DNA from: an uncultured Candidatus Saccharibacteria bacterium
Lineage (GTDB): Bacteria > Patescibacteriota > Minisyncoccia > Phycocordibacterales > WO2-35-19
NCBI GenBank assembly: GCA_964630525.1
Contig: CAZVUY010000003.1
Span: 48,699 to 112,698, forward strand
Length of the DNA: 64,000 nt
Direction of reading: 5' to 3'
Shown: in pieces, positions 4,852-40,697 of the stretch
Position numbering within the stretch: the first letter of the stretch is position 1
How the letters are laid out: each line of letters begins with the position of its first letter
Notes under the pieces: model-generated
Database searches by the model: none
What the model was told of the DNA's origin: nothing
What the model saw: only the letters and a program-made list of their open reading frames with translations
Translations under genes and position numbers: made by a program

Positions 4852-4862
4852 CTTCGGAAGGA

Positions 4863-4896: not shown

Positions 4897-4936
4897 AGGG
4901 TGTAATAAGATTATCGATATCAAATAATTACATTTA

Positions 4937-5575: not shown

Positions 5576-5599
5576 GCACTATCCTTCAGTTTTACCCAT

Positions 5600-15341: not shown

Positions 15342-15851
15342 CTACTCGTCTTCTTTTAGTTCGGCCAAAGCGACTTTGAGCTCGTTTTGTTTGAGTGAAG
15401 CAAAAAATCTTTTTAGAGTATCGACGATCACCGGCAACTCTAGGTAGTCGATCAAGATAGCGACCCAGGCGAGCCAAAGAGGCAAAAGCAGCGGTGCATT
15501 TTCTACAAATGCATCGATCACAAACTCATCGGTGATCCAGAAGAGGTGCAACCATTGGGAATTGATAAAAAGGAAATACATCAATGACTTTTTGTTGAAA
15601 GATTTGCGGAGTTCGTTGAGGTACACAGTGGAGGTGGCCAAGATGGCTGGGATCTCGGTGTAGTCGATGAGGACGATGAAAGCTTTGGGGGCGTCGTGGA
15701 GGGAGAAGAGAGGGGCGCCGAAAAGTTTGGCTGTGATCACTTCGCCAAAAAGCCAGATCAAATGAAATATTTGTAGCAAAAAAAGTCCCGCGGCGATGCC
15801 GAGGTTTAGTGTGTAATGGCTTTCGTACCAACTCCAAAATTTTTTAAACAT
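15342..15851 (-). CDS. Hypothetical membrane protein
   Basis: ORF with several hydrophobic helices. Confidence 0.45.
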   Translation of the reverse strand: MFKKFWSWYESHYTLNLGIAAGLFLLQIFHLIWLFGEVITAKLFGAPLFSLHDAPKAFIVLIDYTEIPAILATSTVYLNELRKSFNKKSLMYFLFINSQWLHLFWITDEFVIDAFVENAPLLLPLWLAWVAILIDYLELPVIVDTLKRFFASLKQNELKVALAELKEDE

Positions 15852-15976: not shown

Positions 15977-16126
15977 AGTCGTGCGGCGTTCGAGACGCGT
16001 CAACATAACGCTTTTCTTGCTAAGTAAAGCTGATCCGTCTAGAGTGCAAAAACCCATAAAATTCTTTTTCGTGGTCGATTCCAGTCTTCTGGATTTCTAG
16101 ACCATAAAAAGCTATTATGAGCAATA

Positions 16127-17596: not shown

Positions 17597-18165
17597 TCAA
17601 ATACACTTTCAACATCAATGAGGAAATTGCTCGGTGGGTTACCGAGGTGTACGTACGCGATAATAAAAATCTAGATTGGTGGGTAGCTTTTACTAATCCT
17701 ATTGCTGGTCCTTGGAAGAAAATAACAGCACTAAACGGAGACGGAGTTCCTGTTGAGATTTACCGATTCGAAAGAGAGGGAGAAAGGCCGGATCTTATTT
17801 TGGTCAATGACACGCATAAGACAATACTAATTATCGAGGCAAAAGATTTTGTTCAGAAATTAGTAGCTGGTGAGCAAATGCGTAAATCTGCCCGTGTTAT
17901 TAAAGAAATTACTTCTATACTTAGAAATTGCGGTAATGAACATTGGGTATCACGTAAGGATTATAAAATTATTCCTTCGTTCTTATGGTATACAGATAAA
18001 CAAGATCTGATTAAGCCAGAGGATGAGTTGGTACGAGTAACTTATAAAACAGTAGCGGATGATGATTCTGAACTATTGAATATAGTGATCACAAAAGGTG
18101 AATCAGGAGATCTAAAGAACAACTTTGTCTACAATTCACAGATCACTGATGATCTAACTGTTTAA
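17593..18165 (+). CDS. PD-(D/E)xK nuclease-fold protein (candidate restriction endonuclease subunit)
   Basis: RPDLILVND...ILIIEAKD motif. Converges on the methyltransferase genes. Confidence 0.5.
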   Translation: MIKYTFNINEEIARWVTEVYVRDNKNLDWWVAFTNPIAGPWKKITALNGDGVPVEIYRFEREGERPDLILVNDTHKTILIIEAKDFVQKLVAGEQMRKSARVIKEITSILRNCGNEHWVSRKDYKIIPSFLWYTDKQDLIKPEDELVRVTYKTVADDDSELLNIVITKGESGDLKNNFVYNSQITDDLTV

Positions 18166-20030: not shown

Positions 20031-21271
20031 GTTTTCTTAAGAATTACCATTAGGTCACAAAGGTTAATTCCAACGTCTCCACCTTTTCTTCGTTGGCTTG
20101 CAGCCCATGAAGCCTCAGTGAACTTAGGTATTCTGAGAGCTACTTTTTCCACATTATATACATCTTTCAATCTGTGGATTAGATTATGTGTGACAGGTAT
20201 ATATTGACCTTTGATAACAGTGTCGCCAATCATTAAGACAACTCTACCATCAGACTCTAAGTAGCCGTTTAGGTTTCGAAGCCCGTTCTCCATATCATTA
20301 AGATATTCCTCAACTTTTTCTGGCTTTCCAACTTTAAATGCTTCTCTAATTTCACCTTTTCGAATAGATGCATGATCTATATCAAGCCAGGCCAGTTCAA
20401 GTGAATTAACTCCACTGTATTTATATGAATTAAAGTAAGGTGGATGACAGATAATTAATTTAGCAACCTGGTCCTTGCTATTTGGCGTATCAAATATAGA
20501 TCGAACTTCAATATTAATAACCGACTTCCTGGTTTTGGGTAGTTCAGGGGCTGACTCCGCAATTTCTAATGCTTTTTTAAGAAAGAAAGGGAAGGCATCC
20601 TTTTCAGCCGTCTCCACATCTAGAAAAAGTCTCCCTTGTTGTGTTGTCGCCCGCGAAACCCTACGGACGATACCCAAGAAAGCAACCATTAAAGCGTCTT
20701 TAATTTCAGAAGAGTAACTCAGATTCTTAACCCCTGTTCGAATCTTTTCAAGAGAAATAATTGTTTCTGGTAGAAACCAATGATCGGGGTTTCTTAGTCC
20801 CGTTAAAACAGGTTTTTTTATCCTTTTTGAATTTGTATAAAAATCTCTTACTTCATTGAGAGCTTGGAGATAGTCTTCCTTGTCAATCTTTGTAGTTTTA
20901 ACTCGTGATATCAGTACAGACAGAGGGTTGATATCGAAGCAAGAAGCCTGTCTCTTTAATAAGAGGGCTTCTAGTGCTGTGGTTCCACTACCACACATGG
21001 GATCAATAACCAAATCATTTTCCTTCGTGTATTCTTTAATTGCATGTCTTGCAATAGGAGGGGGGAATTTACCAAAATATCTGAAAATGCCATGAGATAA
21101 ATAAGACAGTGTTTTGTTTGAGGCACTAGAAGTCCAAACCTCGATATCTTTTGAAAGTTCCTTGATTCTGCTCCTATTTATTAAATCAGCATACTTTTCC
21201 TGAATTTCGTGGCTTGAAAAATCAACAATTTCAAGTTCTGGGATATTATCTTTTACGTTATAGATAGACAT
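20027..21271 (-). CDS. DNA methyltransferase (N6/N4 type), second copy
   Basis: VIDPMCGSGTT motif I and ICHPPYF motif IV. Its stop overlaps the start of the other methyltransferase gene. Confidence 0.7.
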   Translation of the reverse strand: MSIYNVKDNIPELEIVDFSSHEIQEKYADLINRSRIKELSKDIEVWTSSASNKTLSYLSHGIFRYFGKFPPPIARHAIKEYTKENDLVIDPMCGSGTTALEALLLKRQASCFDINPLSVLISRVKTTKIDKEDYLQALNEVRDFYTNSKRIKKPVLTGLRNPDHWFLPETIISLEKIRTGVKNLSYSSEIKDALMVAFLGIVRRVSRATTQQGRLFLDVETAEKDAFPFFLKKALEIAESAPELPKTRKSVINIEVRSIFDTPNSKDQVAKLIICHPPYFNSYKYSGVNSLELAWLDIDHASIRKGEIREAFKVGKPEKVEEYLNDMENGLRNLNGYLESDGRVVLMIGDTVIKGQYIPVTHNLIHRLKDVYNVEKVALRIPKFTEASWAASQRRKGGDVGINLCDLMVILKKT

Positions 21272-21321
21272 CAGCAATGTATATAGAATATGTTTGCAAT
21301 GTAATTATATCAGTAAAGTCT

Positions 21322-22638
21322 TTAATTTAACGATACCCGCTTGTTGATAAGTGTAATTTTCCCCCTTAAACAGCCGAGCAATTCTCTTTTTTCAAAATCT
21401 TTCCCTTCTCTAAGAATATATTTAGCATAATTACGAATATCTATTTCAGGTATATCAGGCCTTTCCCTGTTACCTAGTAGTACCCTTTGAAATTTTTTAT
21501 ACCTCTCCACTTCTTCTTTTATCTTCTTATTTATGCCGAGTTCGTCTATCTCGATCTGATCAATTAATTTCTCAAACTGAGTGATTAGATCATTCTCGTT
21601 GATATAGTTACCCTTACAATCCACCCCTTTACTCCTTGAACATCCGTAGTAGACATGTCTGTTCACGCTTCCACTCTTTAGCTTCTTAAATTTCTCCTCT
21701 GCTGTTATTCCGGAGCTGCATAGCCCACAAACCATCAACTTGGTAAAAGCAAACTCCTTATTTGAACCTCTAACGTAATCTATTCGCATATTTTCTTGCA
21801 CCATATCAAACAATTCTTTCGTTATGATAGGTTCGTGCTTGCCCTTATACCAATTACCGCTTTTTGTTGGAAACTCAAATGTGCCGTAATAGAAGTGATT
21901 GCATAATATCCGATGAACATTTCCTATGCTTAGGTTTTTATTTCCATTGGCTGTCCTAAAATTAAGATCAAATTTAAGCCAATTATAAATTTTCCTTGTT
22001 GACCACTTTTCGTAGGCTGCTTTTTCAAACATTTTCTTAATAATTGGCGCTCTCTCTGGATCTATCATCACATATCCCTTTCTATCGATTCTCTTTTCCG
22101 TAAGGTAGCCAGTCGGTGCAACAGATGGCCACAATCCCATTTCTACTCTAGCTCTCAACCCTCGTTTTACGTTTATGCTTTTATTATCGTTTTCAAGTTT
22201 TGCCTGAGAACATAGAATCATTAGTAGAAATTTTTCGCTCGGAGTGTTCGTAAAGGTTTGGCCGTAGGTTCTAATTTGTGTCAGTTTTTTCTCATCCATT
22301 AAATCAACAATTGATCCCAGATCTCCGGCGTTTCTAGACAATCTATCTGGATGCCAAACTAGTATTCCGTTGAATCTATCTCTCCTTAGATCCTCAAGAA
22401 TCTCTTTAAATACTGGCCGTTGCCCTGAATCCTTGGCAGAATGGGCTTCTCGTCGTATGTCTACAATCTCAAGGCTTTCTCGCTCAGCTATAGCGAGCAT
22501 TTCTTTAACCTGAGACTCAATTGATAAGGCCTGCTTTTCATCTTGTTCTGTTGATTTACGAGCATATAAGCAATACCTAACTTTTATTACTGGTATTGGT
22601 AATGGATTGCCGATTAGGGCAGTTGCTTGCGTTTCCAT
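21322..22638 (-). CDS. Large serine recombinase (integrase/transposase type)
   Basis: N-terminal YARKSTEQDEKQALSIESQ serine catalytic domain, a recombinase domain and a C-terminal Cys-rich zinc ribbon. ATG at 22638. Confidence 0.8.
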   Translation of the reverse strand: METQATALIGNPLPIPVIKVRYCLYARKSTEQDEKQALSIESQVKEMLAIAERESLEIVDIRREAHSAKDSGQRPVFKEILEDLRRDRFNGILVWHPDRLSRNAGDLGSIVDLMDEKKLTQIRTYGQTFTNTPSEKFLLMILCSQAKLENDNKSINVKRGLRARVEMGLWPSVAPTGYLTEKRIDRKGYVMIDPERAPIIKKMFEKAAYEKWSTRKIYNWLKFDLNFRTANGNKNLSIGNVHRILCNHFYYGTFEFPTKSGNWYKGKHEPIITKELFDMVQENMRIDYVRGSNKEFAFTKLMVCGLCSSGITAEEKFKKLKSGSVNRHVYYGCSRSKGVDCKGNYINENDLITQFEKLIDQIEIDELGINKKIKEEVERYKKFQRVLLGNRERPDIPEIDIRNYAKYILREGKDFEKRELLGCLRGKITLINKRVSLN

Positions 22639-22968
22639 GTATATATTGATGACAGACCCCAAAACCCTGCATAGCTATGCAGAACTAAGAAAACGTCGCA
22701 TACTCGCGTTTAGGGCTTAGCAAAAGCTCTGTAGTGCGATAGATTCAAATGGATAGCCGTAAGTGCTATCATGTAAATACAACTGAATATTGGCCCGTAA
22801 AGGGCAGGACCTAAACCCGAAAGGGCATGGTCCCAAATTCGCAAGCAACATAGAGAACCCGTCATTAGGGCGTTGCTTGCGTTACTAGGGGAAACCCTAG
22901 TAGAGGAGTCCGCGAGGCCCTTCCTAGTGGCGGGCTTTCTGTTTCTATTAAAAACGCAAGCAACAAAC

Positions 22969-23847
22969 ATGATTAAGAAAATATTACTGGGGCTAATTGG
23001 AGGCTTTGTCCTACTCGTATGGATCGGATCAATGCTTCCAGATGTCCCAAGGGAGGAAGTAAGCCAAGATAAAGTTTCTGTCTCATCTGATGTTCAAGAA
23101 GCAACTGCTCCTCAAATATCAATACAAGAAACTAGTTCAGTTACGAATCAATCTCCTACTACTGAAACCGCAACCAAGTCAGTCCAAACGACTCAATCAA
23201 GTCCCACTACAGCCCCGCAATACACATATTATTCAGTAACTGATGTGGTAGACGGAGATACGGTCAAAGTGAATATAAATGGAACTGTAACAACTCTTCG
23301 ATTGATTGGAATGGATACGCCAGAGACTGTTGATCCCAGAAAACCAGTTCAATGCTTTGGTAAAGAAGCATCTAACAAAGCAAAAGAATTACTTTCAGGA
23401 AAGAAAGTAAGACTTGAGATGGATCCAAGCCAAGGAACTCTCGATACTTATGGCAGAACTCTTGCTTATATCTACCGAGAAGACGGTTTGTTCTTTAACA
23501 AATACATGATTGAGCAGGGGTATGCCCACGAGTATACCTACCGAACTCCATACAAATACCAGGCTGAATTTAAAACTGCTCAAAAGACAGCTCAAACCAA
23601 TCAGGCGGGACTGTGGTCTCCAAGTACCTGTAACGGAGATACGACCTCCTCTTCCGAAACTGTCCCAGCCACTACTTCATCAGGTGGAAAGTTCTACACC
23701 TCATCACACTACAGTGCGAAATATTACTATCCAGAGGCATGTAATGGTTGGGAAAGTCTAAGTCCAACTTATCTCAAATCATTCGATACCCTAGAAGCTT
23801 TATTGGCTTCTTATCCTTCGAGAACTAAGAGCCCACAGTGTCAGTAG
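22969..23847 (+). CDS. Membrane-anchored thermonuclease (SNase family)
   Basis: N-terminal TM helix, a Ser/Thr-rich linker, then an SNase core LIGMDTPETV...GRTLAYIY. Confidence 0.75.
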   Translation: MIKKILLGLIGGFVLLVWIGSMLPDVPREEVSQDKVSVSSDVQEATAPQISIQETSSVTNQSPTTETATKSVQTTQSSPTTAPQYTYYSVTDVVDGDTVKVNINGTVTTLRLIGMDTPETVDPRKPVQCFGKEASNKAKELLSGKKVRLEMDPSQGTLDTYGRTLAYIYREDGLFFNKYMIEQGYAHEYTYRTPYKYQAEFKTAQKTAQTNQAGLWSPSTCNGDTTSSSETVPATTSSGGKFYTSSHYSAKYYYPEACNGWESLSPTYLKSFDTLEALLASYPSRTKSPQCQ

Positions 23848-24247
23848 TCTGGTTACTTTCTGTCTTGCCCCTGCTTGAGGTCGGCTCATTTTTACCATGT
23901 CTAATGATCACCTCAAAACCTTCCGATCTTTTTACTCCCATTAATTCAGCAATCAACCCTTTCGGTCTTGGTCGTACGTAGTTTTTATGATGATTATCAA
24001 GCCAATACTTCACAGCCCACTTTTCACCCCTTTGCATAGCCAAAAATAATTTACTATGTGCCAAATCATTTCCTGTTTCTTCTCCTAACTGCATGGCCTT
24101 ATCCATTTCTTTTCTGAACGCAGGATCTTTTTCTCGCCATTGGTAAACTGTGTTTCTTGCGATTCCAAGATTCTTGCAGACAACCGAGACATTCGGAAGT
24201 AGGCATAATTCCTCCAGAAGCTTTTTAGATTTTCGGTACTTCTTCAT
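23825..24247 (-). CDS. HTH protein, phage terminase small-subunit-like
   Basis: N-terminal HTH LLEELCLLPNVSVVCKNLGIARNTVYQW. Sits next to a ParB-MTase gene, as in phage packaging regions. Confidence 0.4.
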   Translation of the reverse strand: MKKYRKSKKLLEELCLLPNVSVVCKNLGIARNTVYQWREKDPAFRKEMDKAMQLGEETGNDLAHSKLFLAMQRGEKWAVKYWLDNHHKNYVRPRPKGLIAELMGVKRSEGFEVIIRHGKNEPTSSRGKTESNQTTDTVGS

Positions 24248-25508
24248 CTCTTAATACTTCAGCAGTTAACCCGGTGAGTTTTTCCCAACGCTTAACAATG
24301 AGATCGCAAAATATTGGCTCGAGCTCAATCCCATAGACTCTACGCTTTAATTGTTCTCCTGCGATTAGGGTACTACCAGAACCTAGGAAGCTATCCAAAA
24401 TCACGTCTCCAGGCCTTGTGCAGCGTAGGATGGCCTTCTCATGGAGCTTCGGTGGCTTTGAGGTAGCATGTTCGTAATCTTTGCCTGCCAATCTCTTAAC
24501 AGCCCAGATATCTCCAATCTGATCTAACATCTCGTTTCCTGTACTAATTTCTTTATTTAAAACCTCGTTAAGATCTTGCTTATCAGTTGAGAGATACGGA
24601 GAGCCTTTAGTGCCATAGGTACAAGGTTCGTAACACTTGTTGAATGCAACTGTAGGAGTGGGGTTGTGGCCATTCTTTACCCACAAGCACACTCGCTTAT
24701 TGTTAATTCCAAGTTCGGCGTAAAGAGTCTGCATGAGCCAAATGTATCGCTGATCCGACCAGTAAAAAATGTGGAAATCTTTCTTGGCTACGGAAAGAGC
24801 GTTTACCATAGAACTTCTAATTAGATTTCTGTACGCCTCTTCAGTGCGATTGTCCTCGACTTTACCACCGTAACCTCTTTTACCGCCGATACCTTTGTCA
24901 TAACTTACGTTCAGGTTATAGATAGGGTCCGAATAGATCATGGACGTCTTCTCATCCTCGAATAGTTTATGGACCACTTTTGGGTCAGTAGAGTCGCCAC
25001 AAATAATCTTGTGCTTACCCAGAGTGATAACATCTCCGAGTTTAGTCTTAGGTTCCCTAATCTTCTTGACCTCTTTTTCTACATCGAAGTCGTCGTCTTC
25101 AACTTCTGCATCCTTAGCCCAGATGTTATCTAACTCAATTTGGTCAAAACCGATATCCACCAGTAGATCCACATCAAAGTCCTTGAGTTTCTCGAAATCC
25201 CAGTCTCCAATCACGGCGTTACTCGTGAGCATATATCTTTTGTATTCATCTTCCGTTAGTTTACGATTTGGTACTCTCACTTCAATTTCTTCCTTACCTC
25301 TGCCAAGAATTTGGAGGGCTCTGATTCTTTGATGTCCGGCGCAGATCTTGCCATCTAGGTCTATTGCTGGAATTTCTACTAGATTAAACTTCTTTAAACT
25401 TTTCTTAAGATCTTCCATTGTCTTGTCCGACATAACCCTTGGGTTCTTAGGGGAGGGTAAGAGGGCGTCGACTGTACGTTTTTCCGTATGCCATATAAGT
25501 TTTTTCAT
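24225..25508 (-). CDS. ParB-like nuclease domain / DNA methyltransferase fusion
   Basis: ParB motif LVEIPAIDLDGKICAGHQRIRAL. Methyltransferase motifs SDPIYN and ILDSFLGSGST. ATG at 25508. Confidence 0.75.
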   Translation of the reverse strand: MKKLIWHTEKRTVDALLPSPKNPRVMSDKTMEDLKKSLKKFNLVEIPAIDLDGKICAGHQRIRALQILGRGKEEIEVRVPNRKLTEDEYKRYMLTSNAVIGDWDFEKLKDFDVDLLVDIGFDQIELDNIWAKDAEVEDDDFDVEKEVKKIREPKTKLGDVITLGKHKIICGDSTDPKVVHKLFEDEKTSMIYSDPIYNLNVSYDKGIGGKRGYGGKVEDNRTEEAYRNLIRSSMVNALSVAKKDFHIFYWSDQRYIWLMQTLYAELGINNKRVCLWVKNGHNPTPTVAFNKCYEPCTYGTKGSPYLSTDKQDLNEVLNKEISTGNEMLDQIGDIWAVKRLAGKDYEHATSKPPKLHEKAILRCTRPGDVILDSFLGSGSTLIAGEQLKRRVYGIELEPIFCDLIVKRWEKLTGLTAEVLRDEEVPKI

Positions 25509-25658
25509 ATTGTTGGTGATTAGCTTTGTAACCACTTCTAGACCTTACGCAAAACGGGCCCACAACGCCGATCCCGTAGGATCTGCTTTGTGGGCCCGTA
25601 GGCTCCGAATCTATGTAAGTGTGCTTAAAGTTTATATCCACCCGTAAAGGGTGTCAAG

Positions 25659-26345
25659 ATGCTTTACAAAATCTGTGGATTGGGCGATAATGAAAGTATG
25701 CATCAAACACAGCAGAAATTACTTGACCTGATTGGTCGCCAAGACCTGGGGAAAATGAGCCTAAGGCAGATTGCTAAGCTCGTGGGGGTTGAAAATAAGC
25801 CTCAGATCGTGAAGCATCATCTTCTTCAGCTTGAGAAGGCGGGGCTTATTCAGCTTAACCTCGAAAGTGGCATAATCCGTCTCACTAGCCGAGGGTTTAA
25901 CCCATCTCCTGTTAAGAGCATTTTCTACTCTATTCCCATTGTGGGTGCCGCTAACTGTGGCCCAGCAAATATTTTTGCAGAAGAAAGAGTTGAGGGGTAT
26001 CTAAAGGTATCTTCAAAAATGCTTCCCCGCAGGAGAAATGATCTCTATGTGCTTATAGCTGACGGACCATCCATGAACCGGGCGGAAGTGGTTGATGGCA
26101 AAACCATCGATAGTGGCGACTTCGTTATTGTTGACCGTTCATATAATACCCCTAAGGATGGTGACATCGTCGTGGCTGTTATTGACGGCATGGCGACAAT
26201 CAAAAGATATCGGGAAGATAAGGATCACGATCAAATTATTCTCGAGGCGGAATCTACTGAGAAATTTCTTCCAGTCTTTATCCACGAGGGAGACGATTTC
26301 GTGATTAGCGGTAAGGTTATCAATGTTATTAAGAATCCAAAATAA
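25659..26345 (+). CDS. S24-peptidase repressor (CI/LexA-like)
   Basis: N-terminal wHTH and C-terminal S24 domain (ADGPSMN ... GDIVVA ... TIKR). Divergent from the ParB-MTase gene. Confidence 0.7.
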   Translation: MLYKICGLGDNESMHQTQQKLLDLIGRQDLGKMSLRQIAKLVGVENKPQIVKHHLLQLEKAGLIQLNLESGIIRLTSRGFNPSPVKSIFYSIPIVGAANCGPANIFAEERVEGYLKVSSKMLPRRRNDLYVLIADGPSMNRAEVVDGKTIDSGDFVIVDRSYNTPKDGDIVVAVIDGMATIKRYREDKDHDQIILEAESTEKFLPVFIHEGDDFVISGKVINVIKNPK

Positions 26346-26347
26346 TT

Positions 26348-26587
26348 ATGGTTAAGAAAAATATTCACACGGTCTACAACAGTGACCGCAAGATGTGGGA
26401 GACAAAGAAGGAAGGACAAGCAAAACCACTCGCTTCATCACACACTAAGGATGCGGCAGAGGAGAAGTCTATTCGCGAAGCAAAGAAAGCAGGGGTTGAG
26501 CATGTGATCCACAACAAGGACGGCAAGATCTCTGACAAAGACAGTTACGGCAAGGACTCCAACCCTCCAATCGATAGGAAACACTAA
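26348..26587 (+). CDS. DUF2188-like small protein
   Basis: SHTKDAAEEKSIREAKKAG...VIHNKDGKI...SYGKDSNPP pattern. Confidence 0.5.
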   Translation: MVKKNIHTVYNSDRKMWETKKEGQAKPLASSHTKDAAEEKSIREAKKAGVEHVIHNKDGKISDKDSYGKDSNPPIDRKH

Positions 26588-26599
26588 TTACCAACTCCG

Positions 26600-27520
26600 A
26601 TGATGACTGTCTTTACATGGCTACTAGCTAAATTTGCTGAAACGGCATTTGGCGGTGTAATCATGGAAGGACTTGAGCACTATTTCCCAGATTTATTTAA
26701 GGGAAAGACAAAAGAATTGGTAGATGTTTATGAGAAAAGAATTAGGGAGAAGAATAAGAAAATTAGAGAGCTAGAAAAAGCAAAGACAAAGGAACAGCAA
26801 CGCCATGATGAAGAGGAATCAAGACTTATTGATTCATTGAAAAGAAGGAGCATAGCGACGGATAAATTGATTGAGCAGTACCACAAACCCCTGAATGCAA
26901 TATTAATTTCGTATGCCACACAACGAGAAGATGTGGGTGGGAGAAATAAAGAGTCCCATTTTCTTAAAGAAGAGTTAGAGAAATATAACTCTAAGTACCT
27001 AGGTGGAACAGATGTTCTTATTCCTCCCGCCCATGTTCCTTCAGGTATAAAAAGCCAGGGCGATTTAAAGAAATGGTTTGAGGAAGATATTTTGAAGGGT
27101 CGATATTGCAAGATAAAGTTTATGATCTTGTTTGATATAAAGAAGTCTGCTTTTTGGGGCACATATTTGCCCTACATTCAAAAGAAACCCATGCATCACA
27201 GTGTTGGTGAAGTCCTAAGTGTCGGAGATGTTTTCACAGAGGAGCAAATTAATAAATTGGCTCTAAGTGAGATTATTAAATCTGGCGATATAGCTTGGTT
27301 GGCATCATCAGTTATATCTGAGGCTGAAATAGAGATCATATTAAGAAACCAAAAAAAGATTGAGCAAGAGATTGGCAATCCTTCTTTAAGAGTGGTTGCT
27401 GATGGTGATATTAAAGTAAAATTATCCTCTGCATTATCAAAATTTATACAAAGTGCTGATTCTGTGGCTGACGCAATTATTGATGAGGCCAAGTTTTGGA
27501 ATGAAAAGATTAAGGGTTAA
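26600..27520 (+). CDS. Hypothetical protein (306 aa)
   Basis: ORF. Hydrophobic N-terminus and a charged coiled-coil segment. Confidence 0.4.
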   Translation: MMTVFTWLLAKFAETAFGGVIMEGLEHYFPDLFKGKTKELVDVYEKRIREKNKKIRELEKAKTKEQQRHDEEESRLIDSLKRRSIATDKLIEQYHKPLNAILISYATQREDVGGRNKESHFLKEELEKYNSKYLGGTDVLIPPAHVPSGIKSQGDLKKWFEEDILKGRYCKIKFMILFDIKKSAFWGTYLPYIQKKPMHHSVGEVLSVGDVFTEEQINKLALSEIIKSGDIAWLASSVISEAEIEIILRNQKKIEQEIGNPSLRVVADGDIKVKLSSALSKFIQSADSVADAIIDEAKFWNEKIKG

Positions 27521-27533
27521 AGATTAAAATCTT

Positions 27534-27908
27534 ATGATTAGATGCTCAAATTGCAAATCAATATTGGTTAAGGAGATAGACATGAATTATGCCTCTGTCA
27601 AAAAAGAAGGTGAGCCCGCTGATTCCTCAGAACTTTTACCAGAGTACTTTCAGTGCGAGACTTGTAGTCATGCCTGGTTTGCTGATCCGTCTGCTAAAAA
27701 ACTATATCTTGAATATAAGGAGTTGGTACCAAAAACAGAAATTATATCTCAGATTGCACGACCCCGTGGCACATATACTATCTATCATATTAAGCCAGAA
27801 GAACTTTCTCGGAGATTAGAAATTGCTCGTATACTTACTGAGGCACATCAGCATGATTTAAATATAGATGCTGGGGACTGGTATGAAATATTTCAAGATG
27901 CTAGATAG
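27534..27908 (+). CDS. Zinc-ribbon hypothetical protein
   Basis: CSNC...CETC motifs. Confidence 0.4.
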   Translation: MIRCSNCKSILVKEIDMNYASVKKEGEPADSSELLPEYFQCETCSHAWFADPSAKKLYLEYKELVPKTEIISQIARPRGTYTIYHIKPEELSRRLEIARILTEAHQHDLNIDAGDWYEIFQDAR

Positions 27909-27933
27909 TTAAAGATATTAAATTACAGACGAT

Positions 27934-28560
27934 ATGGAAACTTTCATATTAAACATTTATCAAAAATTAGGAGATTACTTTACAGGAAGTAAAAGAAGGA
28001 GGTTGTTATATGCACTTGTTGTAATATTCTTTGTATCTATTTTAGTAATTTCGACCTGTTTTAAATTATCTGTTTCAATCGATACTCTTTATTGGGTTTT
28101 TAGTAGTCTCGTTCAGGCACTTTTAGCACTTGTTGCATTAATGGGAGTCGTATCAGTATTTAAATTACAATCACTTAAATCATCTGAGGACCAGTTTTTG
28201 ATGATTGCAAGAGAAAGTACTTATACCTACTACATCGGAGCGCCACCATCAACTATTGAATTATTGTTATCAAAAATAGAACCAGTCATATCTTCTAATA
28301 ATTTAGACAAATCTAACCACCTGCACATTCTCAGAGATAACATTATGGAAGTAAGATCATCTAAGGAATTAGTGGTGAATTATGCTACAAAATATGCAAT
28401 ATTTACCTTTCTAGTTGTTCTGTTATCCCTACTTTTTCTAATGTGCACAACTTATATTTCTAGGTTCTATTTGGGTGTACCCTCCCTGTACCTCATGTTT
28501 GTGTTAACCGCATATTCTTTATTTCTTGCGATGAAGGGATTTTCTGGCTCTATTAGATAA
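27934..28560 (+). CDS. Hypothetical 4-TM membrane protein
   Basis: Four hydrophobic helices. Confidence 0.45.
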   Translation: METFILNIYQKLGDYFTGSKRRRLLYALVVIFFVSILVISTCFKLSVSIDTLYWVFSSLVQALLALVALMGVVSVFKLQSLKSSEDQFLMIARESTYTYYIGAPPSTIELLLSKIEPVISSNNLDKSNHLHILRDNIMEVRSSKELVVNYATKYAIFTFLVVLLSLLFLMCTTYISRFYLGVPSLYLMFVLTAYSLFLAMKGFSGSIR

Positions 28561-28627
28561 TGTCCATAAATAAATGCTGAAAAGTGTCACTTTTGTCACT
28601 TTTTGCTATCCTTAAAGAAACATATAT

Positions 28628-29263
28628 ATGGACCAGATAGTCTACATACTCACGAATGAAGCCATGCCCGGCTATGTAAAGATTGGGATTACTGGTGATT
28701 TACAGACAAGGATTAAGCAACTAAGTAGCACCTCGGTTCCCGTCCCTTTTGAATGTTTTTATGCCAAAAAGGTAAAAGATGCTCGGTTTGTAGAAAATAG
28801 GTTACAAGCCACATTCTCTCAGGACAGAGTCGATTCTGGGGCAGGTAGAGAATTTTTCATGATCCAACCCGAGCAGGCAGCAGCCGCCCTGAGTCTTGCT
28901 GAAGGAGAGGAAATCATATTAGGTGACTCAACCATATCTGAACAGGAGCGAATTGCTATTGAGGAAATCAAAAAACGCCGTCCTGGATTTAACTTTTCAA
29001 TGGTAGGTATAAAACCAGGTGCAATATTAACTTTCTCTTTAGATGAATCAATTACTTGTGTGGTTCATGATTCAAAGAAAGTTGAGTTTAATGGAGAGGT
29101 GACCTCACTATCAGATGCAGCTATGAAAGTTCTAGAATCAAAAGGTCTAAACTGGAAAGCGGTTTCTGGACCTGGTATCTGGATGTATGAAGGAGAGAAT
29201 CTATATGAAAGAAGAATTAGGATGGAGGAAGAAGGGGATGGATCTATTTCTGAGAATAATTAA
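28628..29263 (+). CDS. T5orf172 / MUG113 (GIY-YIG-like) domain protein
   Basis: VYILTNEAMPGYVKIGIT...R.KQL...PVPFE...GREFF motif. Confidence 0.55.
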   Translation: MDQIVYILTNEAMPGYVKIGITGDLQTRIKQLSSTSVPVPFECFYAKKVKDARFVENRLQATFSQDRVDSGAGREFFMIQPEQAAAALSLAEGEEIILGDSTISEQERIAIEEIKKRRPGFNFSMVGIKPGAILTFSLDESITCVVHDSKKVEFNGEVTSLSDAAMKVLESKGLNWKAVSGPGIWMYEGENLYERRIRMEEEGDGSISENN

Positions 29264-29482
29264 CGTGTACGAGACGCGTCATTCGGGAGTGTTAAAATAA
29301 ATCTATTCCGTCAAGCAGGGCTTGACCGACCACGGTTCTAACACGAGGCGGCCAGCAGCCATGTGAGATAGACTGAGACGCCTAAATCAGTCATATTTCT
29401 CAAAGTATTTTTTGAACGAGTCATGGGCTCGAACCGTCTTTGGATGGTGTCCTAAACGGGTCAAGATTGATAAAATATAAAT

Positions 29483-29923
29483 ATGAAAATTATTAGTCTA
29501 AATACTTGGGGTGGGCGTGCAGGAAAGGAAGGGTTACTTTCTTTCTTTAAGGAGCATAAGAATGATACGGATATCTTTTGTCTCCAAGAAATTTGGTCCG
29601 CACCCTATAGTCATTTAGAGGGATACAAAGCTGGCGGTAAGGAGATTAATCATGCGGAAATCATGGTTCAGGGTCTTCAGGAAATCACTGAGCTTTTATC
29701 TGATTTTGTTCCATATTTCCGACCACACCATGGTGATCACTACGGTCTTTTGATGATGGTAAAGAAAGATATCGAGGTGAAAGTTGAGGGAGAAATTTTT
29801 GTACACAAGCACAAGGGATATATTCCTGAAGGTGCCTCGCCCTACAACTTTGAGACCATGACAGCCAGCAGTCATATACTAAGTCAGGTGACTAGGATAC
29901 CTCGGCTTATTTATCCAAAATGA
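29483..29923 (+). CDS. Endonuclease/exonuclease/phosphatase-like protein, short and possibly truncated
   Basis: N-terminal MKIISLNTWGG resembles an EEP start. At 146 aa it is shorter than typical EEP proteins. Confidence 0.4.
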   Translation: MKIISLNTWGGRAGKEGLLSFFKEHKNDTDIFCLQEIWSAPYSHLEGYKAGGKEINHAEIMVQGLQEITELLSDFVPYFRPHHGDHYGLLMMVKKDIEVKVEGEIFVHKHKGYIPEGASPYNFETMTASSHILSQVTRIPRLIYPK

Positions 29924-30882
29924 TACCAGTTCAAAACCCAAAAAATAAAATTATTGTAGCCGCCATTCTTACTTTGCTTATGATCGTAGGTCTTGTAATC
30001 TGGTATTTAAATCAACCAAAACCAGCATCGGACCATATCCAGGAATTAACTATGGAAGAAGTAGAAGCAGGCTATGAAGTCAGTGCTCGCGCTATGGCTT
30101 CGAGCTCTCCTGATTTTGCTCGTCGAATGGCAATAAATGAATTACCTGCTATTGGAGATAGTAATTATAAAAAGGATGATAATTATGTATATTTTGGTAC
30201 TGATATTGTAGTGGGGGCAGATCCAAAAACTTTTGAAATAATAAATGAGGAATTCGCAAAAGATAAAACTCATGTGTATTACGAAGGAGATATGTTGGAA
30301 GATTCTAACTCTCCAACTTTTGTTCCAGGTCCGATTCCAAAGGATAAATATAGCGTGTATCTGCTTTTGATTTGTAAAGATAACCAATGGGATCAGTGTT
30401 ATCAAAAAGTAGCAGGAGCAGATCCAGCAACTTTTGAACCTGTAAAGTATGGATTTTATAAAGATAAATCTCATATCTTCTACAACACAAAGTTGGTTCC
30501 CGAGGCGGATGTAAACACTTTTGCTATTTATGATGGAGGTAAATATGACTATACCTATGGTTATGATAAGAACTATATTTTTGTAATTGGATACGACCGA
30601 GTCGGAGTGATTAAAGAAAAGTGTAGTGACTTAAATCGAATTGGTGGCTACTATTTGAAATGCGACGACAAAGTTTACTATGAAGATAAACTTTTGGTAG
30701 GTGCTGATGTAAATACTATGAGACCCGTGGGAGTTACAAGTAACTATGCGAAAGATTCAAAGACCGTTTACTTCGATGGAGAGGTTGTGGTAGGTGCAGA
30801 TGCGTCAACCTTTGAGATCGGAGATGGAATAAATGCGAAAGATAAAAATTACACATATCGATTTGGGAAGAGGGTGGAATAA
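29920..30882 (+). CDS. DKNYY repeat membrane protein
   Basis: N-terminal TM helix. Repeated YF/YY...GAD..TF units (KTHVYYEGD, KSHIFYN, KVYYEDK, KTVYFDG). Confidence 0.6.
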   Translation: MIPVQNPKNKIIVAAILTLLMIVGLVIWYLNQPKPASDHIQELTMEEVEAGYEVSARAMASSSPDFARRMAINELPAIGDSNYKKDDNYVYFGTDIVVGADPKTFEIINEEFAKDKTHVYYEGDMLEDSNSPTFVPGPIPKDKYSVYLLLICKDNQWDQCYQKVAGADPATFEPVKYGFYKDKSHIFYNTKLVPEADVNTFAIYDGGKYDYTYGYDKNYIFVIGYDRVGVIKEKCSDLNRIGGYYLKCDDKVYYEDKLLVGADVNTMRPVGVTSNYAKDSKTVYFDGEVVVGADASTFEIGDGINAKDKNYTYRFGKRVE

Positions 30883-30883
30883 T

Positions 30884-31393
30884 ATGGAAATAAAAACTGA
30901 ATTTGAATATCAAGGGAAAACATATCCAGTAACCTATAAGGAAGCTGATCCGACTAATGATTTGGAAGGAAAAATATTAAATGGAGTTCATGCATATTGT
31001 TTCTGTGGAGACAAATTCGTTTTAGTCTACAATCAAAAGAAAGATCACTATACTCCTCCGGGTGGCGGTATTGAACCTGGAGAAACTTATGAACAAGCCA
31101 TTATTCGAGAAGTAAAAGAGGAATCCAATATGAAAGTAATCAGCCAAGAATTAATTGGTTACCAAGATGTGGTAGATATCGCGAACGGAGATCGGGTTAT
31201 AAGGCAGGTTAGATCATTTTGTATCGTGGAGCCGTATGGAGATTTTGTTTCTGATCCAGATGGAGATATCACTGCAATTAAATTGATTGATCCCAAAGAT
31301 TACAAACAATATTTCGACTGGGGTAAAATTGGAGACAGAATAATGGAAAGAGCTTTGGAAATATACAATGGAAAATCAACCTCAACAATTTAA
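30884..31393 (+). CDS. NUDIX hydrolase
   Basis: PPGGGIEPGETYEQAIIREVKEESN. ATG at 30884 with a GGGTGGAATAAT RBS. Confidence 0.7.
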   Translation: MEIKTEFEYQGKTYPVTYKEADPTNDLEGKILNGVHAYCFCGDKFVLVYNQKKDHYTPPGGGIEPGETYEQAIIREVKEESNMKVISQELIGYQDVVDIANGDRVIRQVRSFCIVEPYGDFVSDPDGDITAIKLIDPKDYKQYFDWGKIGDRIMERALEIYNGKSTSTI

Positions 31394-31862
31394 TATCGAA
31401 AGTAGCCCAATGGAAGAAGCTTATGAGCTTCTTGAAGCCTCGACTCCTTTAGAGTTATCTCAAAACTATACGAAAGCAGAACAGCCGATATTCATTTCTC
31501 AAGAATGGGACTATGAAAATCCGGAGCAAATACAGAATAAAGTTAAAGATATTTTGGAAGCTGTGAATCCCAGTACCCTAACCGAAGAAGAACAAGATTG
31601 GAGGCAAGAAATACTCTGGTTCTGGTATCACCATGCGATTAGTTGTGCCATTTGGAAAAAAGATAGAGCCAAAGCGATTGAATATTCCAACAAAGCACTC
31701 TCACTTCAAGACGAAAATCATCCGAATAAAATAACAAAAGTATTAAGTCTCTTGGTAAACGATAAAGTGGAGGAAGCAGAAGAATTTGTAAAAACTGTAG
31801 ATACCGACAGAGAAGAAGCTGAGGGATTGATTGAGGATTATAAAGAAGGAAAATTCTTCTAG
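31368..31862 (+). CDS. Hypothetical acidic protein
   Basis: ORF with no recognisable domain. Confidence 0.4.
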   Translation: MENQPQQFNIESSPMEEAYELLEASTPLELSQNYTKAEQPIFISQEWDYENPEQIQNKVKDILEAVNPSTLTEEEQDWRQEILWFWYHHAISCAIWKKDRAKAIEYSNKALSLQDENHPNKITKVLSLLVNDKVEEAEEFVKTVDTDREEAEGLIEDYKEGKFF

Positions 31863-37028: not shown

Positions 37029-37216
37029 TTTGTCTTTTAGGTAAAATAATGCATAATAGAAAGTGCCCCAAGCAGGGGTTTTATTATGGATCCTGTAGTA
37101 GAAAATGGCATAGAAAGCTTTTCTCTCAGGCTAAGCGTATTTTGGAATTATTAGAATGAACTAAAATAATGGCGCAAATGCTTTCCAAATAAGCAATGCC
37201 ATTTTTCACTAACAGG

Positions 37217-38992
37217 ATGGAAATTAGAAACATTGCTATTATCGCTCACGTCGACCACGGCAAAACGACTCTCACTGACTCTATTTTGAAGCAGACCCAT
37301 GCCGTTGAAGAAGGAGTGAGTATGGACTCAAATGCGCTCGAAAAGGAGCGTGGTATTACCATTTATTCCAAAAATGCTTCTATTCAATACAAAAGTACCA
37401 AGATCAATATTGTCGACACTCCAGGGCATGCCGACTTTGGTTCTGAAGTAGAGCGAATCTTGCGATCGATCGACTCGGTTCTTTTGGTAGTCGATGCGCA
37501 AGAAGGGCCAATGCCCCAGACTCGCTTTGTGTTGAAAAAATCTTTGGAAATCGGCCATCGCCCGATCGTGGTTTTAAATAAAATCGATAAACCAGCGGCT
37601 GACCCGAAACGGGCGCATGATGAAATATTCGAATTATTTTTTGACTTGGGAGCGACCGAAGAACAACTCGATTTCACTACAGTCTATGCGATCGGTAAGG
37701 ATGGGGTGGCGATGAAAAATTTGGACGATGAACGGAAAAATATGGAACCACTTTTGGATACTATTTTAGAAAAGGTTACTCCGGCCCCCGACAAGACTGA
37801 AACAGCCCTCAGGGCTCAACCTTTTAATCTGGGTTATGACAACTTTTTGGGTCGCTTGGCGATCGTGAGGGTTTACGAGGGGGTACTCAAAGATGGTCAA
37901 AAAGTTTTTGTGAAGAAATCGGAAGGCAAGATCGAAGAAGGCAAGATCACCAAAATTTTCGTTTTTGAAGGTACCAACCGAAAGGAGGTGGCTGAAGTGA
38001 GAGCAGGGGATATTGCGATTATTGCTGGCCTGCCAAATATTTATATTGGAGACACCGTGACCGACAATCGAGAAGTGGAAAATTTGCCCTCGATCCATGT
38101 CGATGAGCCGACCATCGCTGTCAACTTTTTGGTCAACAATTCGCCTTTTGCTGGTCGGGAAGGCAAGTTTGTGACTAGTCGCCAGATTCGGGACAGATTG
38201 GTCAAAGAGCTTGAGATAAACGTAGGTCTAAAAGTGGACTTCGACGAGGAGGTAATGAAAGTTTATGGTCGTGGCGAGCTACATATCGCTATTTTGCTTG
38301 AAAATATGCGCCGCGAAGGTTTTGAGCTCCAGGTTTCTCAACCGCAGGTGATCATCAAAGAGATCGAGGGGGTGAAATGTGAGCCTTTCGAAGAAGTAAC
38401 CATCGATGTGCCTGAGGAAATGCAGGGGGTGGTGATCGAAAAGTTGGGCAAGCGTGGCGCTATCATGACCAATACTCGACACCACAACAACCATGTGCGA
38501 CTGATTTTCGAAGGACCAACTCGAGGGCTCCTCGGTTACCGCAACCAATTTGTGGTAGACACCAAAGGGGAAGGTATTTTTGCCAGTCGCGTGCTCGGCT
38601 TCAAACCTTATGCTGGTGAAATCCAAAAAAGACCGACCGGCTCGATGACTTCGATGGCTTCTGGCAAGGCGCTTGCTTTCGCGCTCGACAATCTGCAAAC
38701 TCGAGGCACTCTTTATATTGGTCCGACGACCGAAGTGTATGAAGGAATGGTGATCGGCAATACAGCGAAGGGTGATGAACTCGTGGTCAACCCAACCAAA
38801 GGCAAACAACTTACCAACATGCGTGCTTCCGGCTCGGACGACAAGATTTATCTAGCGCCCCCACTCCCAGTTACCATCGAAAGTGGTTTGGAAATAATGG
38901 CTGAGGATGAATATTTGGAAATTACTCCAAAAAGTGTCCGTTTGCGCAAAAAATATCTGACCGAACTCGAGCGCAACAAACATAGGGCATAA
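37217..38992 (+). CDS. typA: Translational GTPase TypA/BipA
   Basis: [18 protein letters not shown]1 motif and an EF-G-like body. An alternative start exists at 37196. Confidence 0.85.
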
Positions 38993-39086
38993 ATAAACCC
39001 AGACTTGCATTTTTTGCAACAATAATGTAGTATCCTGCCGGGCCTCTTTATGAGGCTTAATTTGATCTTTGAATTTGGAGGATAGT

Positions 39087-39857
39087 ATGCGACAAATCGT
39101 CGCCTTTTTTGTGATTTTCGTTTTTGCTTCCCTGGCTCCGGCCGCGGAGCTGATGCCGGATTTCGCTGGCGTACCTACCGGTTGGGTGACTGACCGGTAT
39201 CAGCCGAATGTTTTCGCCAACGTCGGCAACTTTGCCGGGCGCGACAATGTGCTCGGTATAACCACCACGGCGGACGAGAGTCTCGGTTCCCGTCCGGGGC
39301 CTTTCCAATCCACGTTCTACAACACTCAGGGCATGCAGTACGCCCTGACTGGCGGCGCAGGTGATTCGCTTTCAGCGGATCTCTGGGTGCCAGAAGAGTG
39401 GCGGAGCGAGGCCAATGGCTCGCGGAGGACCGATATGTGGGGGGTGATGACCGACGGCTCGTTGGTGACCGACTACCCAATAATCGGATTCACCAACTAC
39501 GGCGGGACTCCAACGTTTCGGGTGTGGGATGACATTGCTTGGGTGAACTTGAGCGATCCCATCCAGTACGGGTCATGGAACCGACTGAGCTTGCTATTCA
39601 CTGGTGCTTCCTACGAGTACTACGTAAATGGCAATCTTGCTTACACCGATAACACACTCGGTGCTGGAACCACTGGTTTCAGCGCCACGATCATGCAGAT
39701 CTACAATTTGGGCGATCCAGCATTTCCCAACGCGGTGGTCAACGACTATAGCGCCCATTGGGACAACGTAGGAGATGTACCCGAGCCGGCGACGTTGTCG
39801 CTTGCTGGACTGAGTCTGATGGGGCTCGGAATCTGGCATCGACGAAAAAAGGCCTGA
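39087..39857 (+). CDS. PEP-CTERM sorting-domain protein
   Basis: Signal peptide and the C-terminal motif VPEPATLSLAGLSLMGLGIWHRRKKA. GC content far above the flanks. GGAGGA RBS. Confidence 0.7.
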   Translation: MRQIVAFFVIFVFASLAPAAELMPDFAGVPTGWVTDRYQPNVFANVGNFAGRDNVLGITTTADESLGSRPGPFQSTFYNTQGMQYALTGGAGDSLSADLWVPEEWRSEANGSRRTDMWGVMTDGSLVTDYPIIGFTNYGGTPTFRVWDDIAWVNLSDPIQYGSWNRLSLLFTGASYEYYVNGNLAYTDNTLGAGTTGFSATIMQIYNLGDPAFPNAVVNDYSAHWDNVGDVPEPATLSLAGLSLMGLGIWHRRKKA

Positions 39858-39881: not shown

Positions 39882-39920
39882 AACGCCCGAGACCGTAAGG
39901 TCTCGGGCGTTACCTTTTTT
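39882..39920 (+). terminator. Rho-independent terminator
   Basis: Perfect 13-bp stem AACGCCCGAGACC-GTAA-GGTCTCGGGCGTT followed by a T6 run. Confidence 0.7.
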
Positions 39921-40662
39921 AATTTAATTTTTGTATCAGAGCCTGCACCCCATCCCAGAGACCGTCACCGTCAGTGTCTCTCATTTTCGGATTGGTTTTA
40001 TTGCAAACCTCACCATCTTTAGCACCGAGGCATTCTTCATTGTAATCAGCGATACCGTCTTGGTCGGTATCTTCCGACCAGCGGGTGACTCTAGCTGTTA
40101 ATTCTTCTTCACCGGCCTCACCTCTATTTGTTGCCCCGCCTTGGGTTGGACTAAAACTGAGCATTTTGAGATTGCCGGCCTCGTCTTTGAGGAAAAAGAT
40201 AATGCTGCGAAAGCGGCCGATCAGGTTCATGTCTTTGTTATTTTCGATCCAGAAATCGGTAGCCAGGATTGCTTGCTTTTCGTCTGACCAGAAATGGACA
40301 AAGTCAGATTTTTTGAAAGCGCTACCGTAAGAGTAGGCGGCTCCCATCCGGGCTTCGCAGTCGATCCGAGTCTTTGGATCTTCACAGACCGGAGCGATTT
40401 TGTAGACTACACTTTTGATGCCTGCCAAATTGCGAGTTTTGTTGTATTCCAAATATTTTTGAAATAGATTCCAGGCCGCGTCTTTTGGATCATTCGAGAG
40501 TGGTAGGGACATTTCTGGCACTTCCGGATTTAGTGCTATTTTTTCTAATTGAGGCTCTTCTTTGGTGTTGGTCGGGTCGCCTGGTTGGTAGCGCATGATC
40601 AATACCAAAAGACCGATGATTGCCAAGAAAGAAAAAGTGAAATATATGATTTTGGTTTTCAT
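39919..40662 (-). CDS. Membrane-anchored protein with calcium-binding (thrombospondin type-3-like) repeats
   Basis: N-terminal TM anchor. DTDQDGIADYNE and DTDGDGLWDG motifs. Confidence 0.45.
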   Translation of the reverse strand: MKTKIIYFTFSFLAIIGLLVLIMRYQPGDPTNTKEEPQLEKIALNPEVPEMSLPLSNDPKDAAWNLFQKYLEYNKTRNLAGIKSVVYKIAPVCEDPKTRIDCEARMGAAYSYGSAFKKSDFVHFWSDEKQAILATDFWIENNKDMNLIGRFRSIIFFLKDEAGNLKMLSFSPTQGGATNRGEAGEEELTARVTRWSEDTDQDGIADYNEECLGAKDGEVCNKTNPKMRDTDGDGLWDGVQALIQKLN

Positions 40663-40697
40663 AATGGGGTAGGATAACATAGGTGTATAATATTTTC

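Follow-up and report, generated by a model that had tools for sequence, protein, structure and literature searches.

A PEP-CTERM protein gene directly downstream of typA

We analyzed a 64-kb stretch of contig CAZVUY010000003.1 (positions 48,699 to 112,698 of the forward strand; hereafter the window, or W) and, within it, a GC-rich gene that lies directly 3' of typA. By its defining sequence features, the product of this gene is a PEP-CTERM protein. Related loci carry L numbers: L003 is Logan SRR12487014, L007 is NCBI CAZRKB01, and L004, L005 and L006 are three Logan runs. The central domain of the window protein is termed the type A passenger, and an unrelated domain found at the same place in some relatives the type B passenger. 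The features of the locus are as follows:

37196-38992 (+): typA/bipA, the conserved 5' anchor of the slot (Pfam; synteny in L003, L004-6, L007, L077-79, L178 and L180)
39005-39033 (+): promoter-like element TTGCAT-17 nt-TAGTAT in the spacer 3' of typA, read from the sequence
39040-39058 (+): hairpin GGGCCTC-TTTAT-GAGGCTT in the 5' untranslated region (UTR), from a terminator scan
39077-39082 (+): Shine-Dalgarno sequence GGAGGA, 4 nt 5' of the ATG, read from the sequence
39084-39776 (+): exchangeable segment, type B in L077/L078/L079 and L178 (alignment A2, blastn end points)
39087-39857 (+): PEP-CTERM protein gene, an open reading frame (ORF) of 256 aa
39087-39143 (+): predicted signal peptide, residues 1-19 MRQIVAFFVIFVFASLAPA, A-x-A then AELMPDF (sequence and family alignment)
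39144-39776 (+): type A passenger domain, a predicted concanavalin-A-like beta jelly roll (AlphaFold2, AF2, and Foldseek)
39777-39857 (+): PEP-CTERM tail VPEPATLSLAGLSLMGLGIWHRRKKA (VPEP, helix, HRRKKA) and stop codon (PF07589, TIGR02595)
39882-39920 (+): intrinsic terminator with a 13-bp stem (9 G-C pairs), a 4-nt loop and the T-run ACCTTTTTT

Translation from a TTG codon at 39069 instead would lengthen the protein by six residues, to 262 aa. Exact look-ups with either form of the protein, or with the TypA of the window, matched no recorded contig. The N-terminus consists of MRQ, a 13-residue hydrophobic core and A-P-A, and 39 relatives have signal peptides that align with it; by inspection and family alignment, MRQIVAFFVIFVFASLAPA|AE reads as a Sec signal peptide. 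Residues 2-14 form a helix in the AF2 model, with low to medium confidence. At the extreme C-terminus, the tail is laid out as VPEP-ATLSLAGLSLMGLGIW-HRRKKA and scores 27.9 bits against PF07589 (cut-off 20.7) and 18.1 bits against TIGR02595 (cut-off 16). The terminator hairpin (stem-loop 39882-39911) has a folding energy of -29.5 kcal/mol (z = -6.2). A preliminary description of this DNA, made from the letters alone, had listed a strong ribosome-binding site, a 13-bp stem terminator, a signal peptide and a PEP-CTERM tail at this gene, and each of these was borne out.

The promoter-like element scores under the threshold of a consensus scan. It is kept in seven loci of two Parcubacteria lineages (W, L003, L077, L007, L178, L004 and L180), whichever passenger follows, and may act as a promoter. 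The 5' UTR hairpin is also present in seven loci of two lineages, with a constant stem sequence, a variable loop and no covariation; possibly, it stabilizes the 5' end of the mRNA or terminates typA transcription.

The gene is a long-standing resident of its lineage

The closest source-named TypA sequences, at 81-85% identity, belong to Candidatus Zambryskibacteria, Paceibacterota and Parcubacteria group bacteria. Judged from these TypA relatives, the window comes from an ultra-small Parcubacteria/Paceibacterota bacterium of the candidate phyla radiation (CPR, or Patescibacteria). Patescibacteria are described as monoderm and naturally competent, with competence genes enriched (PMC11665869). 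The gene occupies the slot directly 3' of typA in L003 (TypA 99.3% and PEP-CTERM protein 93% identical to W), in L007 (89% and 82%) and in L004/L005/L006 (69% and 66%). A neighbour-joining tree groups W, L003, L007 and L004 together at a bootstrap value of 97%; L001 and L014, two Paceibacterota-type loci in which typA lies ~5 kb from the gene, join this clade at 67%. This tree is built on 206 columns, its backbone is without resolution, and it supports no firm count of transfers into the CPR. Every comparison of W-clade copies gave a Nei-Gojobori dN/dS of 0.08-0.11; for W and L004, synonymous divergence has reached saturation (pS 0.72). The PEP-CTERM gene is thus long resident and under purifying selection, at a dN/dS of ~0.1.

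The GC content of the gene is 56.5% (65.8% at third codon positions, GC3) compared to 42.7% for the window, and the gene is the highest-GC 771-bp stretch of the 64 kb (z = 3.6). The preliminary description had spoken of a high-GC gene in a low-GC genome; the gene is indeed GC-rich, but 'low-GC' is slightly overstated for a window of this composition. The rise in GC that it had noted extends from the signal peptide through the passenger to the tail and ends at the ORF borders. All classes of synonymous sites are shifted relative to the window (C in NNY codons, 0.60 vs 0.37; G in NNR codons, 0.82 vs 0.41; four-fold GC, 0.63 vs 0.44). A compositional outlier of this kind is the usual flag of recent transfer.

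The type A family comprises well-conserved proteins of ~260 aa. A word-indexed search gave 439 matches and a profile search 1135 representative clusters, and the domain also occurs as a module in giant proteins. Among species-representative genomes, the family is found mainly in Proteobacteria, Acidobacteriota, Verrucomicrobiota, Myxococcota and Gemmatimonadota, and also in 11 metagenome-assembled genomes (MAGs) labelled Patescibacteria. By this spread, the premise that such proteins have their main home in Gram-negative bacteria was right. No relative of the gene was found among viral contigs.

From the composition, the preliminary description had proposed that the gene was acquired recently and might be non-functional. 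On this account, the gene came from a GC-rich Gram-negative donor, its composition has not yet drifted and it may be inert without an exosortase. The GC maximum at the gene, the foreign-DNA-like G/C shift at every class of synonymous site and the preponderance of family members in Proteobacteria, Acidobacteriota and similar groups would all agree with such an event, as would 23 nt of tail DNA (PEPATLSL) that are identical in many unrelated Gram-negative PEP-CTERM genes. However, slot and gene are common to lineages at 89% and 69% TypA identity, GC3 is still 0.59-0.68 where synonymous sites are saturated, and the CPR copies form a well-supported clade evolving at low dN/dS. A search for the donor lineage, another idea of the preliminary description, yielded no non-CPR homologue above ~63% identity.

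The preliminary description had also considered contamination or an assembly chimera, in which a Gram-negative fragment has been joined to a CPR contig. The sole point in favour of this explanation is the sharpness of the GC steps at the ORF borders. Against it, matching junctions and flanks are present in independent assemblies (Logan SRR12487014, SRR27197508, SRR16642443 and SRR27197502; NCBI CAZRKB01), near-identical flanks surround the slot in Logan, JGI and NCBI contigs, and the spacer, ribosome-binding site and terminator are common to alleles from JGI samples. Because of this synteny in independent assemblies and the purifying selection on the gene, we exclude both explanations for practical purposes, a recent or dead acquisition being very improbable and a chimera of negligible probability. 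The type A family entered the CPR from Gram-negative bacteria and, in the W clade, did so long ago.

Two unrelated passengers are exchanged within one slot

In L077, L078 and L079, the TypA protein is 99% identical to that of W and gene order is conserved, at ~89% nucleotide identity over 13.8 kb. The slot of these loci holds a different gene of 228 aa, type B, with a signal peptide and a PEP-CTERM tail (PF07589, 24.6 bits) of its own. The type B gene has a GC content of 55.5% and a GC3 of 0.60 when taken as the 228-aa ORF, and of 54.3% as a 241-aa gene call. Its passenger is unrelated to type A; it is a beta-sandwich with no confident match in the PDB and belongs to a small family of 31 matches.

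From typA across the spacer and the ribosome-binding site, W and L077 are homologous as far as 39083, where the homology breaks off (alignment A2, blastn). It restarts exactly at the Val codon of VPEP, at 39777, and continues through the terminator at 39882-39920, which is common to type A and type B alleles. Type B also lies 3' of typA in L178 (TypA 91% identical to W), again with this spacer, ribosome-binding site and terminator, and in L180 (TypA 95% identical to L004). Between L004 and L180 the homologous arms are longer, comprising the spacer, the ribosome-binding site and the whole signal peptide to AQGA and, again, the stretch from VPEP to the stop codon (alignment A5). Both passenger types are therefore present in each of two lineages that are 31% apart in TypA. 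The divergence of each type runs roughly in step with that of TypA (type A, 82% and 66% identity; type B, 82% and 57%; TypA, ~90% and 69%), which fits descent of each passenger type within the CPR.

Two further observations concern recombination at the slot. A mosaic gene, P0002, combines a type A passenger with a tail otherwise found on type B. Between W and L003, a 600-bp tract of mostly synonymous differences is confined to the passenger, while the first 100 bp of the gene are identical and the tail is 97% identical; dS for the gene is 0.43 compared to 0.07-0.22 in five neighbouring genes.

Divergence concentrated in the passenger between W and L003 might also be expected if the gene were the target of a diversity-generating retroelement (DGR) or of programmed switching from silent cassettes. 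A DGR pair (bAvd and reverse transcriptase) does lie directly 5' of typA in L074, at 4447-5877. However, no template repeat, second gene copy or type B passenger copy is present within the window, no reverse transcriptase was found among the Pfam-scanned window proteins, and the changes between W and L003 are mostly synonymous (dN/dS 0.08), unlike adenine-directed recoding. We consider either mechanism hardly credible for this gene. L074 itself is Zambryskibacteria-like (TypA 85%), and its slot 3' of typA is without a PEP-CTERM gene.

In Candidatus Zambryskibacteria, the gene 3' of typA (L075, 7843-8853, and L076) encodes a 336-aa secreted protein of ordinary GC content. The L075 protein weakly matches (22.9 bits) the N-domain found in the mosaic adhesive trimer fibres of Bdellovibrio (NF053851), which hints that the slot 3' of typA may be a general site for surface adhesins. 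In these fibres of a bacterium living on other bacteria, a conserved module is reportedly combined with binding domains that can be swapped. The window gene is similar in joining a conserved module to exchangeable domains, but its fixed parts are an export signal and a PEP-CTERM tail, and its product is small and single-domain, with no sign of trimeric fibres.

The type A passenger is a predicted lectin-like jelly roll

The AF2 model of the window protein (mean pLDDT 89.5) is a beta jelly roll. In a Foldseek search of the PDB, its best matches were GH16 glucanases, CBM66, galectin and carbohydrate-binding modules of sialidases, with E values of 3e-7 to 3e-5, a probability of 1.0, a TM-score of ~0.46 and sequence identities of 9-17%. 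The passenger shares with GH16 beta-glucanases, CBM66 and galectin the jelly-roll fold, and many of its invariant residues are aromatic or polar, of the kind that typically line a sugar-binding face. It differs from them in its low sequence identity, in the absence of the GH16 catalytic motif ExDxxE from the window protein, for which a Pfam scan gave no GH16 match, and in a score for Laminin_G_3 of 17.5 bits, under the cut-off of 27.6. By its modelled fold, the type A passenger (~210 residues) is probably a non-catalytic, glycan-binding domain.

We also compared the protein with PepA of Zoogloea (NF033554), which reportedly cooperates with exopolysaccharide when cells aggregate (Gao et al. 2018, as cited in PMC11393006). 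Both are small (~260 aa) secreted PEP-CTERM proteins. However, NF033554 matches the window protein with 29.9 bits, over the last 88 residues only and below the family cut-off of 80, and the host of PepA is a Gram-negative floc former.

Not all type A proteins carry the tail. Acidobacteriota members L036, L045, L049, L050 and L059 are without it and have in its place a conserved C-terminal module that contains Cys, CKNGGW...NQGDCIQYVNTG[KR].

The GC excess is shared by all CPR copies

In 14 of 14 CPR loci, the GC content of the gene exceeds that of its flanks, by 0.061 to 0.180. The corresponding difference in 33 Gram-negative loci is -0.078 to +0.006, and the two ranges are disjoint (Mann-Whitney p = 4e-8, the loci being phylogenetically non-independent). 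Within the Gram-negative set of 33 loci, GC3 follows flank GC closely (GC3 = 2.03 x flank GC - 0.56, r = 0.91), in a regression that we extrapolated below the GC range of that set. W and L004 both have a GC3 of 0.66-0.68 despite saturated synonymous divergence. Given such saturation inside this CPR clade, the high GC3 must have been maintained and is not the mark of a recent event. The stable excess is a warning that a compositional outlier marks an old resident gene here. Type A relatives with variant tails (e.g. VPTPASLSL) were also found in L015, L016 and L019, MAGs labelled Bdellovibrionales, and gene GC in these loci is +0.10 to +0.18 over the flanks, as in the CPR.

Expression-linked codon bias does not account for the excess: enolase, MreB and TypA of L001 have a GC3 of 0.23-0.26 compared to 0.51 for the PEP-CTERM gene, and in W the bias goes beyond NNC codons to raise G in NNR codons and four-fold GC as well. 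A GC floor intrinsic to the family was rejected too, mid-GC Gram-negative copies having a GC3 of 0.39-0.47. The excess may instead stem from GC-biased gene conversion at a recombination hot spot in the slot, from selection on the mRNA or from continuing import from GC-rich donors.

The last of these can be put in specific terms: competent CPR cells would keep swapping the passenger with GC-rich DNA of their hosts, with the tail DNA providing homology on one side only. A metagenome scan found the 23-nt string CCCGAGCCRGCGACRYTGTCGCT (PEPATLSL), letter for letter, in ~100 unrelated PEP-CTERM genes of high-GC bacteria (L080-L159); the tail is therefore conserved at the DNA level across families and phyla. 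The scan recovered only high-GC Gram-negative PEP-CTERM genes and no further CPR cassettes. Besides this identity across many Gram-negative families, import would be consistent with the Gram-negative relatives of both passenger types, with the weakly supported placement of three Moraniibacteriota copies among Proteobacteria in the tree, with the enrichment of competence genes in the phylum (PMC11665869) and with the equal GC excess of the three 'Bdellovibrionales' MAG loci. On the other hand, the passengers diverge in step with TypA, as expected of descent within the CPR, the lineage-specific signal peptide is GC-rich as well, and no near-identical donor was found. We therefore regard ongoing import as an improbable source of the excess.

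A second compositional outlier in the window is a gene for orotidine-5'-phosphate decarboxylase (PF00215) at 11139-12053 (-), with a GC content of 53.9% and a GC3 of 0.65. Its four-fold sites are strongly biased to C (0.46), a pattern unlike that of the PEP-CTERM gene.

Evidence for and against a sorting partner

PEP-CTERM was defined as a signal restricted to outer-membrane bacteria, accompanied by exopolysaccharide genes and paired with an exosortase (PMC1569441). The window protein resembles the products of such PEP-CTERM/exosortase (EpsH, XrtA) systems in its signal peptide, variable passenger of a kind in which few domains are recognized, PEP motif, helix and basic cluster (PMC1569441), in a passenger family common to many Gram-negative PEP-CTERM proteins and in the likeness of tails by lineage. 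Unlike them, it belongs to a monoderm CPR bacterium, its gene occurs as one compositionally distinct copy in 64 kb, with the passenger exchanged at a fixed slot, and neither the window nor ~390 kb of CPR sequence revealed an exosortase.

In agreement with the preliminary description, which had seen no exosortase in the window, we found no exosortase, archaeosortase or sortase among its multi-pass membrane proteins or other large proteins. Beyond the window, multi-pass membrane proteins with a CSG-like motif were sought in 17 CPR or predator loci. This motif screen, which lacked a positive control, gave no exosortase, archaeosortase or sortase in the ~390 kb of CPR sequence, Pfam placing the CSG-motif candidates from the 17 loci in other families. 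Applied to ~1 Mb flanking Gram-negative copies, the same screen was also without a clear exosortase, and the absence of one near the gene therefore says little. Exosortase genes need not be linked to those of their substrates. An ArtF-like ORF at 15342-15851 (-) encodes a 169-aa membrane protein with a homologue in relative L078; it scores 18 bits against TIGR04293 (cut-off 150), has no cysteine and is not an active archaeosortase. No exopolysaccharide cluster was found in the window, which holds a single GT4 glycosyltransferase.

The tail itself is strongly conserved. All CPR copies, even the very divergent L040, L064 and L073, retain V/I-P-E-P, the helix and the basic end, and every CPR tail is followed by a terminator-like hairpin and a T-run. 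Within a lineage, tails are near-identical across the two unrelated passengers, and in one lineage the signal peptides are too. In exosortase-bearing species, tails are likewise more alike within than between species (PMC1569441). A cognate enzyme is favoured because the VPEP motif, the helix and the basic end have been kept across CPR copies and on two unrelated passengers, and because the tails are lineage-specific and shared by unrelated passengers as in exosortase-bearing species. Moreover, the tail seems dispensable where it is not needed, since some Acidobacteriota relatives have swapped the whole of it for another module. The preliminary description had offered an exosortase system of this organism as a further reading; on balance, we slightly favour processing of the tail by an exosortase- or archaeosortase-type enzyme encoded elsewhere in the genome.

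That the tail is nothing more than a membrane anchor is a possibility to which we give less weight. In its fuller form, this alternative holds that no exosortase exists, that the tail is a C-terminal stop-transfer helix tethering the lectin-like domain outside the single membrane, and that the motif has been kept as a recombination arm. The blank exosortase screen, a monoderm phylum (PMC11665869), the occurrence of one PEP-CTERM gene per window and the restart of homology between alleles exactly at VPEP are what this would predict. A membrane anchor, however, needs no V/I-P-E-P motif, which is kept in all CPR lineages examined. Against it also stand the replacement of the whole tail in some Acidobacteriota, where it is thus dispensable, and a likeness of tails that is greater inside a lineage than across lineages, a pattern known from species with an exosortase (PMC1569441). 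We consider the fuller form rather unlikely.

A functional model for an enzyme in a single-membrane cell is archaeosortase A (ArtA) of haloarchaea, which cleaves a C-terminal tripartite PGF-CTERM signal and lipid-anchors the S-layer glycoprotein (PMC7157517). ArtA is an exosortase-family enzyme serving a single-membrane cell (PMC7157517), as would be required here, but its motif is PGF rather than PEP, and it acts in another domain of life on other substrates.

Proposed model: a resident surface protein with an exchangeable passenger

We propose, with a probability of about 70%, that the gene encodes a resident, Sec-exported jelly-roll PEP-CTERM surface protein of a CPR bacterium, housed in a modular slot 3' of typA. 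Of this, the gene structure, the fold class, the synteny, the purifying selection, the two passenger types and where they join the arms, and the raised GC of every CPR copy are directly shown. The gene is a self-contained transcription unit that begins with a promoter-like element and a 5' hairpin, has a strong ribosome-binding site and closes with a terminator. Its product would be exported by Sec with cleavage of the signal peptide, and the concanavalin-A-like jelly roll would most likely bind a glycan; the PEP-CTERM tail would hold the protein in the cytoplasmic membrane or hand it over there. Within a lineage, the 5' expression and export module and the 3' module (VPEP, helix and basic tail with the terminator) stay fixed, and the passenger is exchanged by homologous recombination in these conserved arms. 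Exchange between fixed arms is why relatives carry either a concanavalin-A-like or an unrelated beta-sandwich passenger. The protein may thus be a surface adhesin with which an epibiont binds a glycan or exopolysaccharide of its host, and passenger exchange might alter its binding specificity or antigenicity.

Several points weigh against this proposal. In addition to the blank searches for a sorting enzyme in the window and in other CPR sequence, the 64-kb window contains a single PEP-CTERM gene, and classical PEP-CTERM genomes have a median of eight (PMC1569441). The host phylum is monoderm (PMC11665869) and so lies outside the outer-membrane range of PEP-CTERM (PMC1569441). Glycan binding and adhesion are suggested by one line of evidence, the modelled fold, at a TM-score of ~0.46. 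The taxon labels of MAGs conflict, L007 and L014 being 'Saccharibacteria' and their relatives Paceibacterota. Finally, types A and B may also coexist as paralogues in one genome and need not be alleles in every case.

A bolder version of the proposal, which we consider unlikely, is that monoderm CPR bacteria run a PEP-CTERM display system of their own, with an unrecognized exosortase- or archaeosortase-type partner and with cassette passengers at the typA slot. The near-universal tail DNA might also allow these competent epibionts to capture passengers from Gram-negative hosts, and frequent recombination might keep the GC content high. If this is true, the slot would set which host surface or exopolysaccharide the epibiont binds.

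Host recognition is a central question for CPR epibionts, and a small lectin-like protein with a swapped binding domain is a candidate specificity determinant. Selection for PEP-CTERM in a monoderm CPR bacterium would mean either that exosortase-type sorting ranges wider or that the signal works without the enzyme.

In the NCBI annotation pipeline, one homologue already goes by the name 'PEP-CTERM sorting domain-containing protein [Candidatus Paceibacterota bacterium]'. Among the papers searched, none connects CPR bacteria with exosortase, archaeosortase or PEP-CTERM proteins. Three features seem to be new: a conserved slot 3' of typA, a design with two passengers whose junctions have been mapped, and a GC excess that is stable throughout the phylum.

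Other features of the window

Other genes of the window include secA (3' end), the GT4 glycosyltransferase gene, ddl, dnaX, leuS, mnmA, mltG/yceG, ychF, pgi and genes for a ROK kinase and a DUF5671 protein, in addition to typA. Downstream of the PEP-CTERM gene and convergent with it, a gene at 39919-40680 (-) occupies a syntenic position in all close relatives. Its 253-aa product starts with a membrane helix and has, by weak matches only, an Asp-rich, calcium-binding-like C-terminal repeat of the TSP3/CglD type.

A block of lower GC content (0.34-0.40) at ~16000-31500 looks like an integrated mobile element or prophage remnant. It contains a serine recombinase (21322-22662, -), three N6/N4 DNA methylases (18162-20030, 20027-21277 and 24225-25535), a T5orf172 protein, a DKNYY protein and, at 25659-26345, the second LexA-like S24 protein of the window. 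A LOOT RNA (RF03000) lies on the border of the recombinase block, at 22808-22923 (+), with a score of 63 bits (gathering score 46); the beginning of a nuclease ORF overlaps with it.

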